Shown here: positions 9,910 to 56,362 of the stretch, piece by piece
Numbering within the stretch: position 1 is the first letter of the stretch
Layout of the letters: each line of letters begins with the position of its first letter
DNA from: an uncultured Alphaproteobacteria bacterium
GTDB taxonomy: Bacteria; Pseudomonadota; Alphaproteobacteria; Rhizobiales; JACESI01
NCBI GenBank assembly: GCA_938034375.1
Contig: CALHLB010000030.1
Span: forward strand, 1,220 to 65,219
Direction: 5' to 3'
Length of the DNA: 64,000 bases
Notes under the pieces: model-generated
Told to the model about the DNA's origin: nothing
The model's database searches: none
What the model saw: only the letters and a program-made list of their open reading frames with translations
Translations under genes and position numbers: made by a program

Positions 9910-9960
9910 TTGTCTTTGGCTACACTTGACAAAGATGATTTAATTAAGCATTTTCTTAAA

Positions 9961-10055
9961 CATCGAGGAGAGTCCCGAGAAGGGTTCTGAGAGGCGGTTA
10001 TTTTCCACTGCGATCCTTAAAACCTGATCCAGATGATGCTGGCGAAGGGACGATG
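9961..10055 (+). promoter_or_regulatory. TPP (THI-box) riboswitch aptamer
   Basis: P1 CATCG (9961-9965) pairs with CGATG (10051-10055). Conserved CTGAGA and AACCTGATCCAGATGATGCTGGCGAAGGGA elements. Sits directly upstream of thiO. Confidence 0.85.
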
Positions 10056-10124
10056 GTTTAAACCTTTTTATAAGCCTGCAGTCTCTCATGCATCACTGTT
10101 GATCGTGTGATGCATGAGAAAGAT

Positions 10125-11159: not shown

Positions 11160-11325
11160 AACACTGGCGCTTAATCTTGAAATGCTTCTTGAAGAATTAG
11201 GCTATGAAGATGCACTTGTTGCAACAGCCTTGAACGGGGATTTTATCTCGCATGAATTACGCGATATGACATCTCTTCAACCTGGCGATAAAGTTGAAAT
11301 TTTAGCGCCGATGAAGGGAGGGTGA
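11128..11325 (+). CDS. thiS: sulfur carrier protein ThiS
   Basis: 65 aa, MTLTINGK...ILAPMKGG, with the C-terminal GG typical of ThiS. Overlaps the thiO 3' end. Confidence 0.85.
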
Positions 11326-11329
11326 GGGG

Positions 11330-12100
11330 ATGGTTGAGTTTTATGGCCAAGCTTGCACCTCTCGTTTTATGTTGGGAACGTCGCTTTATCCTTCCCCAGC
11401 AATTATGAAACAGGCGATTGAGGCGAGCAGGGCAGATATTTTAACGGTTTCTTTACGACGTGAATCAGGGCAGGAACGGGCAGGGCAGGATTTTTGGCAT
11501 ATTATTCGCTCTATGGGGAAAAAAATTCTTCCTAATACAGCGGGGTGCCATTCCGCTAAGGAAGCGATTACAACGGCACATATGGCGCGGGAAGTCTTTG
11601 GCACCAAATGGATTAAGCTGGAAGTTATTGGCGAGGCCGACACATTGCAACCAGATGTTTTTGGTTTGGTTGAAGCTGCCCGTGAATTGAATAAAGAAGG
11701 GTTTGAGGTTTTTCCCTATACAACGGATGATTTGGTAGTGGCGGAACGCTTGCTGGAGGCTGGTTGTGAAGTTTTAATGCCATGGGGCGCTCCTATCGGT
11801 TCAGGAAAGGGGCTGAATAATCAATTTGCCCTTAAAGCGCTACGTGCGCATTTTCCAGATATTCCGCTGGTTGTTGATGCTGGTATTGGTAAGCCTTCAC
11901 ATGCTATGGAAGCGATGGAGCTTGGCTATGATGCCATTTTGTTAAATACGGCTGTTGCGAAAGCTGGCAATCCGGTTTTGATGGCAAAAGCCTTTGGTAT
12001 TGCAATTGAAGCTGGTCGGCTAGCCTATGAGGCAACCCCTATGGAAGGGCGTGATATGGCGGCGCCTTCAACACCCGTTTTAGGTATGGCTTTTTCTTAA
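11330..12100 (+). CDS. thiG: thiazole synthase ThiG
   Basis: [49 protein letters not shown]. Confidence 0.95.
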
Positions 12101-25215: not shown

Positions 25216-25332
25216 GGATGCTTAATTTGGGATCCGAATATAAAATCAATTGACATTCTCCTGATACCAGTATACCTAAATAAGTGGGACACCCTTCCCC
25301 AACGAAGGGCAACTATCTGTGAGGGTAGAGAT

Positions 25333-26493
25333 ATGACAGATATTTTGAAACCGGCTACGCGGCCGGAAAATCCGCGTTTTTCTTCTGGTCCTTGTGCGAA
25401 GAGGCCAAATTGGTCGCCTGATAGTTTAAAGGATGCCGCTTTAGGGCGTTCCCATAGAGCAAAAATCGGTAAATCAAAACTAAAAAAAGCGATTGATTAC
25501 ACACATGAGATATTGGGTGTGCCTGATGATTATGTCATCGGCATTGTACCAGGCTCCGACACAGGCGCTTTTGAAATGGCCATGTGGACCATGCTGGGTG
25601 CGCGCGGTGTTACCATGCTTTCCTGGGAAAGTTTTGGTGCTGGTTGGGTTAGTGATGTTACCAAACAACTGAAACTTGAAGGTGTATCAATAATTGATGC
25701 GGATTATGGGGACTTGCCAGACCTCTCAAATATAAATTTTGATGATGACGTGTGCTTTACTTGGAATGGCACAACATCTGGTGTGCGTGTTCCAAATGCT
25801 GACTGGATAAAATCTGATCGCTCGGGATTGACATTTTGTGATGCGACATCAGCCGCTTTTGCCCAGGACCTTGAATGGGATAAGCTCGATGTAACAACTT
25901 ATTCATGGCAGAAGGTACTTGGTGGCGAGGGGGGGCATGGCATGTTAATTTTGTCGCCTCGTGCTATTGAACGTTTGGAAACTTATACACCGGCATGGCC
26001 TTTACCTAAAATTTTCCGTCTTACAAAAGGTGGCAAGTTGATTTCAGGCATTTTTGAAGGGGCAACGATTAACACGCCAAGTATGCTTTGTGTTGAAGAT
26101 TATCTGGATGCGTTAGCTTGGAGCCGTGACGTTGGTGGCCTTAATGGCTTGATGAAACGGGTTGATGATAATTTCGCTGTCTTAAATGACTGGGTTGAGA
26201 AAACAGCATGGATTGAGTTTTTGGCAAAAGCGCCTGAAACGCGCTCTAATACCTCTGTTTGCCTGGTAATTTCCGATCCGGAGGTTGTTGCCTTAAATGA
26301 GGATGCACAAATCGCTTTTGCTAAGAAAATAGTTTCTCTGCTTGATAAGGAAGAGGTTGCTTTTGACATTGGTGCTTATCGTGATGCGCCTGCAGGGCTT
26401 CGTATTTGGGCAGGTGCAACGGTTGAAACATCTGATTTAAAAGCGTTGACTGAATGGCTCGATTGGGCCTTTGATCAAGTGAAAATAGCTTAA
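25333..26493 (+). CDS. serC: phosphoserine aminotransferase
   Basis: 386-aa class V aminotransferase of the alphaproteobacterial SerC type ([29 protein letters not shown]). Upstream of serA. Confidence 0.88.
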
Positions 26494-49654: not shown

Positions 49655-49746
49655 TTTATATTGAAGCTAAGCATTTTGTTTATGAGGTTGAATAAACTTA
49701 AAGGTGAATTCATATGGTAAGCAAGTATCTTTTTATGCGAGGAAGA

Positions 49747-51798
49747 ATGAAAATAAATAATCCGTTTTTGGGTGAATGGAAAACACCCTTTGAAATGCCA
49801 CCGTTCCATGAAATTAAAGTGCAGCATTTCAAGCCAGCTTTTGATGTGGCTTTAGAAAAAAATAAACAGGAAATTGAAGCAATTGCGGAAAATAAGGAAG
49901 CGCCAAGCTTTGATAATACACTTAAAGCGCTGGAGCTTGCAGGAGAAACCTTATCAAAAGTCACAGGTGTTTTTTATAACCTTTCAGGAGCACATACCAA
50001 TTCTGATTTGCAGGAAATAGAGCGGGAAATGGCGCCGAAAATGGCAGAACATTCCTCAAAAATCATGCTGAATGAAGACTTGTTCAAGCGAGTTGATAAG
50101 CTTTATGAAATGTGGGGGGAACTTGATTTATCAGGTGAGAATTTGCGCCTTTTAGAGCGCTATCATACGCGATTTATTCGAGCTGGAGCAAGGCTTCAAG
50201 GTGAGGCGCGCAAAAGAATGGGTGAGATTACCAAGCGCCTTGCGACACTTGGGACGTCTTTTTCACAAAATGTTTTGGCAGATGAAAGTGCCTATGAACT
50301 TTTATTGTCTAAGGGTGATGATTTGTCAGGCCTGCCCGATTTTCTTATTCAGGCCGCGCAATCTGCAGCAAAAGAGCGTGGGTATGACGATAAATATATC
50401 ATAACATTATCGCGTTCTTTAATTGAACCATTTCTACAGTTTTCTGAACGGCGTGATTTGCGTGAAAAGGCATTTAAGGCGTGGATTAGTCGCGGTGATA
50501 ATGATTGCGAGACGAACAATCATGCCATTATAAAAGAGATTTTGGTCTTGCGTGAAGAGAGGGCCAAATTACTTGGCTTTGAAACTTTTGCTCATTTTAA
50601 ACTTGATGATCAAATGGCCAAAAAACCTCAAGCGGTTCAAGATCTTTTAATGAAGGTTTGGAAGCCTGCGCGTAAAAAAGCAACGGAGGAGGCTGAAAAA
50701 CTGCTGTCTTTTGCTAAAGAAGAGGGTCTCAATTCTGCAATTAAACCATGGGATTGGCGATTTTATGCGGAAAAGGTGCGTAAGGCAAAATATGACCTGA
50801 ATGCTTCTGAAATAAAGCCTTACTTGCAGTTGGATGAAATAATTAAAGCCGCGTTTTATGTGGCAGGTCGTTTGTTCGGTCTCAATTTCACTGAATTGGA
50901 AGCCATGCCAACCTATCATGATGATGTGCGGATATTTGAGGTTACAGACAGTGAGGGCCAGCACGTAGCTCTTTTTATGGGGGATTACTTTGCCCGCCCG
51001 TCAAAAAGATCCGGCGCCTGGATGAGTGGTTTTCGTACCCAGCAAAAACTAAAAGGCGATATTCGGCCTATTATCGTTAATGTTATGAATTTTGCAAAAG
51101 CACCAGAAGGTATGCCATGCCTTTTAACATTTGATGATGCGCGAACACTTTTTCATGAATTTGGACATGCTCTTCATGGCATGTTGTCAAATGTTACTTA
51201 TCCTTCCCTTTCTGGTACAGCAGTTGCTCGCGATTTTGTTGAATTGCCTTCCCAGCTGTTTGAGCATTGGTTGATGGAAGAGGACGTTTTATCAAAATAT
51301 GCCTGCCATTATAAAACAGGCGAAAAGATGCCAAAGGCGTTAATGACGCGGATTAAAATGGCAGAAACCTTTAATCAGGGTTTTCAGACTGTGGAATATG
51401 TTTCTTGCGCGCTTATTGATTTGGCTCTTCATACAATGACGACAGAACAGATTGATGATTTGAATGCTTTAGAGAGAAACCTTTTAGATGAAATTTCCAT
51501 GCCTGATGAAATAGTGATGCGACATCGTATTCCGCACTTTTCCCATATTTTTTCAGGTGATGGTTATTCTTCAGGTTATTACTCTTATATGTGGTCGGAA
51601 GTAATGGATGCAGATGCCTTTCAGGCCTTTAAAGAAACGCAAGATATATTTGATGCTGAAACAGCTAAACGATTGATAAAATTTATATACTCGTCTGGTG
51701 GAAGTCGTGACCCTGAAGATCTTTATACAGCGTTTCGGGGTAAAATGCCAGAAATTCATGCCCTTCTTGAGGGGAGGGATTTAAAAGATGTTGCGTAA
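49747..51798 (+). CDS. dcp: M3-family peptidyl-dipeptidase Dcp
   Basis: HEFGHALH zinc motif, VELPSQ, about 680 aa. Start at MKINNPFLGEW. Confidence 0.9.
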   Translation: MKINNPFLGEWKTPFEMPPFHEIKVQHFKPAFDVALEKNKQEIEAIAENKEAPSFDNTLKALELAGETLSKVTGVFYNLSGAHTNSDLQEIEREMAPKMAEHSSKIMLNEDLFKRVDKLYEMWGELDLSGENLRLLERYHTRFIRAGARLQGEARKRMGEITKRLATLGTSFSQNVLADESAYELLLSKGDDLSGLPDFLIQAAQSAAKERGYDDKYIITLSRSLIEPFLQFSERRDLREKAFKAWISRGDNDCETNNHAIIKEILVLREERAKLLGFETFAHFKLDDQMAKKPQAVQDLLMKVWKPARKKATEEAEKLLSFAKEEGLNSAIKPWDWRFYAEKVRKAKYDLNASEIKPYLQLDEIIKAAFYVAGRLFGLNFTELEAMPTYHDDVRIFEVTDSEGQHVALFMGDYFARPSKRSGAWMSGFRTQQKLKGDIRPIIVNVMNFAKAPEGMPCLLTFDDARTLFHEFGHALHGMLSNVTYPSLSGTAVARDFVELPSQLFEHWLMEEDVLSKYACHYKTGEKMPKALMTRIKMAETFNQGFQTVEYVSCALIDLALHTMTTEQIDDLNALERNLLDEISMPDEIVMRHRIPHFSHIFSGDGYSSGYYSYMWSEVMDADAFQAFKETQDIFDAETAKRLIKFIYSSGGSRDPEDLYTAFRGKMPEIHALLEGRDLKDVA

Positions 51799-51914
51799 TA
51801 TCAGAAGAGTTCTTATATATCATAATGATGTAACGTATTTTTACTATTAAAATACTACAGAAATTATGTTTGAGTTTGATTTATTTGAATTCGCTGTAGT
51901 TTTTTAATACCTAA

Positions 51915-51993
51915 GACGGTCTATTCCCCCCTCTAGACCGTTCAAAAGCGAGGTAACCGTTGCCCCCCTTCGGTTACTTTGCTCTTTTTTTTT
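51915..51993 (+). ncRNA. candidate small RNA: two hairpins with C6 loops, second acting as terminator
   Basis: Hairpin 1 is ACGGTCTA/TAGACCGT (51916-51941) with loop TTCCCCCCTC. Hairpin 2 is GTAACCG/CGGTTAC (51953-51977) with loop TTGCCCCCCTT, followed by TTTGCTCTTTTTTTTT. Confidence 0.3.
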
Positions 51994-52053
51994 CAAGTTA
52001 ATTCCGTTAGGATGTTAAGCTGAAACAACCCTCTTTCCCAGTATTAAAACGAT

Positions 52054-52539
52054 ATGATAGACCAGAAAAATGATTTACTAAAACTCGTTGCTCTTGATAA
52101 CGAGGACCTTGAAGTTATATCCGCCTATTTGCAGGATGCTGTAATGTTGGTTGGGGATTTGAAATTTCTGCCAAAAGAAAAACGCTTTGTAGTGGTTGCC
52201 AACCGTTTTGTTTGGCATAAAGACGATCAAAAACATGGCAAAGATATTCATGAACGCCGGCGCACAGCGCTTCACTTTGAAAAAGTTGAAAAAGTTCAAA
52301 TGCTTAACATCAAGCAAAATGCTGCGGATGCTGTTTTGAATCTTTTGGCCATTCAGTTTTTACCTGATGATGCGCCTTCTGGCACTGTCGATCTCATTTT
52401 TTCCGGCAATGGTGTTTTGAGGCTTTATGTTGAAGCGATTGAAGTTCAGCTTTGTGATATGGGCGGAGCTTGGCAAACCCGTTTGATGCCGGACCATGGA
52501 CCAGATAACGAGGCTGATGATAAGCTTAAAGATAAATGA
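52054..52539 (+). CDS. DUF2948 family protein
   Basis: LKLVALDNEDLEVISAYLQDAV..RFVVVANRFVW matches my recollection of DUF2948. Upstream of hisD, as in other alphaproteobacteria. Confidence 0.68.
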   Translation: MIDQKNDLLKLVALDNEDLEVISAYLQDAVMLVGDLKFLPKEKRFVVVANRFVWHKDDQKHGKDIHERRRTALHFEKVEKVQMLNIKQNAADAVLNLLAIQFLPDDAPSGTVDLIFSGNGVLRLYVEAIEVQLCDMGGAWQTRLMPDHGPDNEADDKLKDK

Positions 52540-56286: not shown

Positions 56287-56362
56287 GCCCAGGTAGCTCA
56301 GTTGGTAGAGCAAGGGATTGAAAATCCCTGTGTCGGTGGTTCGATTCCGCCCCTGGGCACCA
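56287..56362 (+). tRNA. tRNA-Phe (GAA)
   Basis: 76-nt cloverleaf read by hand. Acceptor GCCCAGG/CCTGGGC, D arm GCTC-AGTTGGTA-GAGC, anticodon arm AGGGA-TTGAAAA-TCCCT (anticodon GAA), T arm GGTGG-TTCGATT-CCGCC, encoded CCA. Confidence 0.95.

Follow-up and report, generated by a model that had tools for sequence, protein, structure and literature searches.

A conserved two-hairpin RNA with cytosine-run loops: a candidate riboregulator family from uncultured alphaproteobacteria

Between a peptidase gene and its downstream neighbour in the genome of an uncultured alphaproteobacterium lie two hairpins, and the question they raise is whether they do anything more than bring a transcript to its end. 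The DNA analysed – a stretch of 64 kb, hereafter the window – carries at 49714..51798 (+) a dcp-like gene of the peptidase M3 family (Pfam PF01432, E = 1e-124), followed by a spacer of 255 nt (51799-52053) and by a co-oriented DUF2948 gene (52054..52539, +; Pfam PF11164), the first gene of a conserved downstream block, DUF2948-hisD-UPF0262-LMWPc-infA-maf. The initial annotation saw in this spacer two consecutive stable hairpins, each displaying a run of six cytosines in its loop, and a U-rich tail. It held that two such stems are unlikely to be needed merely to terminate dcp, and proposed a trans-acting sRNA whose loops would resemble an anti-Shine-Dalgarno sequence and those of the cuckoo/CcsR RNAs.

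The sequence is as that description has it: two stable hairpins and a U9 tail are present at window positions 51915-51993 of the plus strand. The first (HP1; 51915..51942, +, 28 nt) consists of GACGGTCTA and TAGACCGTT around the loop TTCCCCCCTC; its minimum free energy (MFE) fold has a 9-bp stem, GACGGUCUA/UAGACCGUU, and a 10-nt loop, UUCCCCCCUC, in which the C6 run – a putative seed – occupies 51926..51931 (+). A short, A-rich, single-stranded linker, CAAA (51943..51946, +), leads to the second (HP2; 51947..51983, +, 37 nt), composed of AGCGAGGTAACCG and CGGTTACTTTGCT around the loop TTGCCCCCCTT and folding into a 13-bp stem with an 11-nt loop, UUGCCCCCCUU, whose C6 run, a putative second seed, lies at 51963..51968 (+). 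Directly thereafter comes the tail, C U9 (C then T9 in the DNA; 51984..51993, +), which would complete an intrinsic terminator and is the likely 3′ end of the RNA. Together with an unpaired-looking A at the base of HP2 the linker makes up a motif of the wider family described below, CAAAAGCG, and the motif (C/U)AAAAGCG is common to six of the 11 lineages (alignments A3 and A5). The stable GC-containing stem-loop, the U tract directly after it and its place on the transcribed strand mark HP2, as far as sequence features can, as an intrinsic terminator; a simple terminator scanner overlooked it because the loop limit of that scanner is 8 nt. The U tail and the A-rich linker are both features relevant to Hfq binding.

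The fold is exceptional for its composition. On the plus strand the MFE is -30.2 kcal/mol against a shuffle mean of -13.8 (z = -6.1), with 0/200 shuffles as stable, whereas the minus strand gives z = -2.9. HP2 of the window contains two G.U pairs, possible only in plus-strand RNA, and the stems of the family as a whole contain 19 G.U cells, which place the structure on the same strand. The structure of the element thus belongs to plus-strand RNA.

Equally distinctive is the location of the cytosine runs. C6 and G6 runs show no overall excess in the 64 kb window (15 found versus 17 expected), and 13 of the 15 C6 matches are in fact G6 on the plus strand. The remaining two – the sole plus-strand C6 runs of the window – are the loops of HP1 and HP2, 37 nt apart, and none of the other C6/G6 runs of the window falls within a hairpin loop.

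A single genome says little about selection, and comparison with relatives was therefore central. The DUF2948 protein of the window forms a singleton cluster; its nearest relatives are about 60-65% identical and come without exception from metagenome assemblies, at least two of the source samples being marine biofilm metagenomes. Relatives of the element were found in the DNA around DUF2948 homologues and then in that around homologues of a small ORF (see below), with DUF2948 as the syntenic anchor for orthologous elements (loci L003-L040). The element proved to be present in 10 further distinct and divergent lineages, making 11 lineages and 13 sequences in total, among which flanking proteins are 25-65% identical and GC content ranges from 41 to 57% (window 41%, relatives 46-57%). 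A covariance model (R1) built from the 13 sequences scores all 13 at 61-93 bits. Because all copies are orthologous at one locus they are not independent samples. A distant Rhizobiaceae MAG locus, L001, the one return of a DUF2948 contig scan (DUF2948 50% identical), has no two-hairpin element, which suggests that the element and the small ORF are specific to the clade of the window. At 2582-3010 of L001 a coding region ends about 45 nt upstream of the DUF2948 match; from its translated end, we take the gene directly upstream of DUF2948 to be murA.

All relatives share the shape of two adjacent hairpins, and the stems bear the mark of selection for pairing. In the model-based alignment 99.6% of stem cells are standard pairs, and compensatory double changes occur at 13 of the 20 pairs, as against 5.3 +/- 1.5 in column shuffles (0/500 attain as many); when the partners are offset by 1-3 columns, pairing falls to 26-42%. 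Compensatory changes affect seven of the eight pairs of helix 1 (HP1), and six of the 12 consensus pairs of helix 2 (HP2), all of them 100% paired. HP2 has a GC-containing stem of 12-13 bp and a U tract directly after it in every lineage (11/11), and its stem sequence, GCGAAGUGAYC, is unusually conserved, more than termination needs. The search for covariation that the initial annotation had called for thus returned a clear answer: the element is a conserved small structured RNA of a group of uncultured alphaproteobacteria.

With the loops it is the other way round: they are retained where the stems vary. Cytosine makes up 53% of the loops across the family, and 15 of the 22 loops contain a run of at least five C, whereas chance would produce 0.12 such loops if C made up 25% and 3.8 given the composition that the loops actually have; 20,000 simulation runs with the latter reached 13 at most. 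At least one loop with a run of five or more C is retained by each of the 11 lineages, and a run of at least four is found in the HP1 loop of 10/11 lineages and the HP2 loop of 9/11. The loop consensus, UGCCCCCCUY, has its C run preceded by a conserved G and followed by U/C. Loss of the run is confined to single loops (HP2 in L009 and in L035, HP1 in L016), and neither loop is therefore individually indispensable; the most perfect C6 loops of the family are the two in the window. Purifying selection on the loops maintains the cytosine run. Loops that go unconserved while stems drift – the outcome that the initial annotation had named as counting against it – is the reverse of what the family displays, which is loops kept and stems compensating. 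With C-rich loops preserved in 11 lineages over stems that drift by compensation, the contention that these hairpins are more than a terminator of dcp is upheld.

Where the element sits in its relatives bears on how it might be made. In every relative it starts 9-30 nt past the stop of a conserved small ORF of 61-71 aa (L003 2639-2833, L006 2635-2850, L009 2609-2806, L012 2643-2828, L014 765-959, L016 2650-2844, L018 2646-2840, L034 1680-1874, L035 3001-3195, L037 3001-3195). The predicted protein has two hydrophobic segments in a two-transmembrane layout (alignment A1; consensus MTKLQS..TIVF.LSILI.A..GQAK...LIL.VAMIASV.TVLY). Its family amounts to 13 clusters only among 5.8 billion proteins, with no match in Pfam and none to DUF1127 at any E up to 10. 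At a constant distance from the ATG of the small ORF, about 61-107 nt upstream, the relatives carry a sigma32-like motif, (C/A/G)TTG(A/C)AA-N13-15-CCCACAT.T (L003 2558-2590, L006 2555-2590, L009 2502-2535, L012 2582-2609, L014 688-720, L016 2573-2603, L034 1603-1635, L035 2919-2950, L037 2924-2954). The sigma32 consensus of E. coli is CTTGAAA-N13-15-CCCCATnT. In 8/10 leave-one-out tests the motif was the top position weight matrix (PWM) match of its locus, and its presence suggests that the small ORF and the C-loop RNA together constitute a unit of heat-shock type. Directly 5′ of HP1 the relatives have no conserved promoter. Regex scans for the sigma-EcfG motif GGAAC-N16-17-CGTT found none conserved upstream of the element and none upstream of it in the window, the only EcfG-like match being upstream of the small ORF in L018. 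Since its position in every relative makes the element the probable 3′ end of a small-ORF transcript, it would be a co-transcribed or 3′UTR-type RNA rather than a stand-alone gene. One lineage (L035 and L036) departs from the usual gene order in that DUF2948 is not followed by hisD; here an opposite-strand protein of 429 aa (L035 3875-5164, -; L036 2467-3756, -) has a precomputed match to PF01847, the von Hippel-Lindau (VHL) beta domain, unusual for a bacterium.

The window presents a different picture. The small ORF is absent from all 64 kb, and its place is taken by an AT-rich spacer of 116 nt from the dcp stop to HP1 (51799..51914, +), in which the ORF list shows no ORF and tblastn with the small ORFs gave nothing significant by way of a remnant. 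A sigma70 scanner found no promoter of the element's own in the window, neither 51799-51915 nor the region upstream of dcp contains a site that the sigma32-like PWM recognises, and a scan for terminator-like sites between the dcp stop and the element returned none. The dcp mRNA is thus the likely source of a transcript ending at HP2 in this genome. On both counts the initial annotation needs amending: a stand-alone sRNA gene is not what the absence of a promoter and the arrangement in relatives point to, and the link with dcp, far from general, is specific to the lineage of the window, relatives having the small ORF upstream instead. The association of element and dcp is a lineage-specific accident. 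As to dcp itself, the ORF is listed from the ATG at 49714; a second in-frame ATG at 49748, following a good Shine-Dalgarno sequence (AGGAAGA) and giving a product MKINNPF..., may be the true start. A weak sigma32-like sequence, GTTGAAT-N13-AATTCATAT, lies at 49688-49716, upstream of this possible alternative start, and failed to pass.

Does the element belong to a family already known? A scan of the whole window with Rfam 15 at gathering thresholds returned nothing on the element, the only matches being a TPP riboswitch (9956-10067; 67.6 bits), a serC leader (25282-25333; 68.2 bits) and a tRNA (56287-56359; 71 bits). A permissive scan of 51700-52150 (E up to 10) found no ar14 and no 6C, only a spurious match to mir-4703 (21.5 bits against a gathering score of 88), which falls on an AT-rich imperfect inverted repeat, AAAATACTACAG ... 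CTGTAGTTTTTT, at 51845-51911, immediately upstream of HP1; this repeat may be a further hairpin, the third, of the transcript or may be noise. Across 10 relatives (E up to 5) the sole match on the element was a sub-threshold one to Pseudomonas P31 (E = 1.1). These scans do not place the element in ar14/cuckoo, in 6C or in any other curated family, and neither Rfam 15 nor the literature searched describes it. Elsewhere, the cspA thermoregulator model matches L006 1-260 below threshold (51 bits, gathering score 78; E = 4.5e-10); the match, truncated at its 5′ end, falls on a cold-shock-domain gene at the edge of the locus.

In layout the closest counterpart is the CcsR/cuckoo group, which comprises Rfam ar14 and RSs0680 and includes CcsR1-4 of Rhodobacter sphaeroides and NfeR1 of Sinorhizobium meliloti. 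The initial annotation was right about these RNAs: they have two to four neighbouring hairpins of 24-50 nt whose loops, 9-27 nt long, carry the motif CCUCCUCCC (PMC4615179, PMC8034643), and their stems vary by compensatory change, conservation being confined to the loop motif (PMC4615179). In R. sphaeroides CcsR occupies the 3′ UTR of a small-ORF mRNA with an RpoHI/HII promoter and a terminator after it; RNase E frees the individual RNAs, which have two C/U-rich loops apiece, by cutting at sites resembling CUCUUC or ACUUC, and CcaF1, the small protein encoded upstream, binds CcsR (PMC8034643). The likeness is considerable. Our element is also alphaproteobacterial, it too consists of two adjacent hairpins, each with the same C-rich loop motif on compensating stems, and in the window both the hairpins (28 and 37 nt) and their loops (10 and 11 nt) are within the cuckoo size ranges. 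The order in relatives is similar as well – sigma32-like motif, small ORF, CYUUC-like flank, two C-loop hairpins – and the flanks just 5′ of HP1, which in most relatives are CCCUUC, AUCCUUC or ACCCUCU followed by G, resemble the RNase E sites of CcsR (PMC8034643), though this is a hint only.

The differences are nonetheless decisive as to membership. The loop motif is UGCCCCCCUY (UUCCCCCCUC and UUGCCCCCCUU in the window) and not the CCUCCUCCC that the comparison with cuckoo-type loops had implied, a motif approached only by the HP1 loop of L003, GCCCCCUCCUC; there is no match to Rfam ar14 in the window or its relatives. Our element comprises just one pair of hairpins, the second of which doubles as the putative terminator, whereas cuckoo RNAs are tandem paralogous copies, and its partner ORF encodes a two-transmembrane protein and not the DUF1127 protein of the CIN1 subgroup of CcsR, besides being missing in the window. 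Homology of the element to CcsR/cuckoo cannot be shown.

Two further systems resemble the element in the chemistry of the loop. GsrN of Caulobacter crescentus, another alphaproteobacterial RNA, recognises a G tract of the katG leader by pairing through six tandem C in an exposed hairpin loop, and its homologues are detectable by BLAST only in Caulobacteraceae (PMC5869019). The conserved C6 loops of our element recall it; compared by its described features, however, GsrN has a single C-rich loop, in its 5′ hairpin, and its own sigma-EcfG promoter, usually near phyR-nepR-ecfG. The element has no conserved EcfG motif, and none of these three genes is among its immediate neighbours in the window (pqiA, GNAT, dcp, DUF2948, hisD, UPF0262, LMWPc, infA, maf). 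The 6C sRNA (RF01066) similarly has hairpins that each display a conserved cytosine run; its two C-rich loops, partly redundant, pair with G-rich ribosome-binding sites such as the AGGGGGG of panD (PMC6486639). The element has no match to RF01066, so the resemblance is convergent at most; 6C is moreover actinobacterial, whereas the serC leader, the relatives of DUF2948 and synteny mark our host as an alphaproteobacterium. Ordinary rho-independent terminators share with the element the stem of HP2 and the U tract directly after it in every lineage; they do not share a conserved loop, a stem sequence conserved across genera, or a preceding hairpin with the same motif. A Bartonella Brt-type RNA, first suggested by GC content and gene names, was dropped, the host being a lone MAG lineage whose nearest DUF2948 proteins are at the distance given above.

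In layout, then, the element is most like CcsR/cuckoo, and in loop chemistry – a pure C run – most like GsrN and 6C. Since membership fails each time on a tested defining feature, it is best filed as a new family within a known kind, the sRNAs with C-rich seed loops, at which it possibly arrived by convergence. Of the interpretation offered by the initial annotation, a selected RNA element with functional-looking C loops stands; a gene with its own promoter, and a place among the cuckoo RNAs, do not.

How might such an RNA act? By analogy with CcsR/cuckoo, GsrN and 6C the element, a demonstrable member of none of them, may work as they do, a proposition for and against which we see about equal weight. 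Specifically, the most likely reading, on which we are nonetheless evenly divided, is that of a 3′-end-derived or co-transcribed sRNA whose C-rich seed loops pair with G-rich sites in mRNAs. It would be a plus-strand RNA of about 80 nt – HP1, the short A-rich linker, HP2 with its U tail – that forms the 3′ end of any transcript entering from upstream. The ancestral source would be the mRNA of the small two-transmembrane protein, read from the sigma32-like promoter; here it would most probably be the dcp mRNA. The putative riboregulator might either be released by endonucleolytic cleavage just 5′ of HP1 or act within the mRNA. One or both exposed loops (5′-UGCCCCCCUY-3′) would serve as seeds, pairing with single-stranded G-rich tracts of the type 5′-RAGGGGGGCA-3′, for example in G-rich ribosome-binding regions or leaders of target mRNAs.

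The label of anti-Shine-Dalgarno sequence does not fit such pairing well: the C6 run is complementary to runs of G and is not an exact match to the canonical GGAGG. Prediction of targets with the C-rich loops as seed, which the initial annotation had also suggested, yielded no duplex in the 64 kb window better than those of shuffled-loop controls. G runs near start codons in the window are few, or belong to spurious ORFs. The best predicted duplex of both C loops is with a G-rich ribosome-binding region at 11295-11332 (GAAGGGAGGGUGAGGGGAUG), before an ORF that starts at 11330, and it does not outdo the controls; this ORF lies downstream of the TPP riboswitch operon. The ribosome-binding sites of the small ORF and of DUF2948, inspected by eye, offer no G runs with which the loops could pair in cis.

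The most serious alternative to an RNA acting in trans is a 3′-end module acting purely in cis, in which HP2 would terminate transcription and insulate DUF2948-hisD, HP1 would block 3′-to-5′ exonucleases, and the C-rich loops would matter only insofar as they aid folding or stabilise the upstream mRNA. That every lineage has in HP2 and its U tract the features of a textbook intrinsic terminator agrees with this account, as do the constant position of the element at the 3′ end of a co-oriented gene and the failure of scans of the window to find either a promoter of its own or targets. What the account leaves unexplained is the loops. Terminator loops are not normally conserved, yet the C runs persist even where 7/8 pairs of HP1 have changed. 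A scan of metagenome contigs with the HP2 stem pattern recovered no member of the family (the collection evidently does not include the JGI sample of L015), and the 15 unrelated terminators that it did return, which share the HP2 stem sequence, have no C-rich loops. Termination needs no second hairpin with the same loop motif, and in the window the element has been kept intact after the loss of its original gene. We regard a function wholly in cis as unlikely, and a role of the loops limited to folding or stability as no likelier.

Alternatively the loops might be read by a protein. A KH- or cold-shock-type protein, say, or the product of the small ORF itself, would recognise poly-C, and the element would serve as a sponge, or as a localisation or processing signal, in place of base pairing. 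Conservation of the loops could equally reflect recognition of this sort; two similar UGCCCCCCUY loops on stable stems, and the conserved stem sequence of HP2, are what a binding protein might require, and CcsR offers a precedent in being bound by the small protein encoded upstream of it (PMC8034643). The small ORF, however, encodes a two-transmembrane protein with neither RNA-binding features nor a Pfam match, and it is missing from the window, the very place where the loops are most perfect. No candidate protein was identified, and pairing is how GsrN and 6C, the known C-loop RNAs, work (PMC5869019, PMC6486639). Binding by a protein seems to us improbable, and so does each of the roles that would follow from it.

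A 5′ leader or attenuator of the DUF2948-hisD operon, with regulated termination at HP2 controlling read-through into histidine biosynthesis genes, is suggested by position: in 10/11 lineages DUF2948-hisD follows the element on the same strand at a distance of 60-170 nt. The eleventh argues against it. In L014/L015 an opposite-strand amidase gene has come between element and DUF2948; the element remains beside the small ORF, where cmsearch finds its single copy, and DUF2948 has no copy upstream. The element also starts directly behind a stop codon and not behind a promoter, and no conserved anti-terminator pairing competes with two helices that are 99-100% paired. We consider a leader highly improbable. 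Gene order in L014/L015, taken together with that in the window, indicates that the element has persisted as an intact unit through two independent rearrangements, and shows its independence from both DUF2948 and the small ORF.

Finally, that this is a chance pair of hairpins, or a REP/MITE-like mobile repeat devoid of function, is refuted – hairpins are common in AT-rich spacers, and the total of C6/G6 runs is at expectation, but the fold score, the strong covariation, and the finding of the element once per locus, orthologously placed, in 11 lineages leave such an origin with next to no probability; nor did cmsearch detect another copy in the 64 kb window (next-best match 15.9 bits, E about 0.1).

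The reading that we prefer, an sRNA carried at the 3′ end of an upstream transcript and pairing through its C loops, can be taken one step further, to a proposal that we advance tentatively and hold a little less probable than the pairing itself: that the element represents a new and independent "poly-C loop" riboregulator family, belonging to an uncultured marine-biofilm clade of Hyphomicrobiales, and a portable module now resident on the dcp mRNA. Without sharing an origin with cuckoo, GsrN or 6C it would have arrived at the same module – heat-shock-type promoter, small ORF, hairpins with C-rich seeds – and in this genome it would have become detached from its own promoter and small ORF to lie at the 3′ end of the dcp mRNA. 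Were this so, the move would have rewired the regulator, which would now be produced under other conditions.

What the analysis provides is a candidate riboregulator family that is new and well supported, from an uncultured clade, with a mechanism of known type. Its immediate reach is limited, the clade being uncultured and narrow; the covariance model could serve to annotate members of the family in metagenomes. The window itself offers a clean natural example of a putative 3′-end sRNA module moved to another mRNA, its hairpins intact after the loss of gene and promoter. If confirmed, the family would be a second alphaproteobacterial case in which a stress-type promoter, a small ORF and a 3′UTR sRNA form one module, and a further, apparently independent, bacterial use of exposed cytosine-run loops to read G-rich sites in mRNA.
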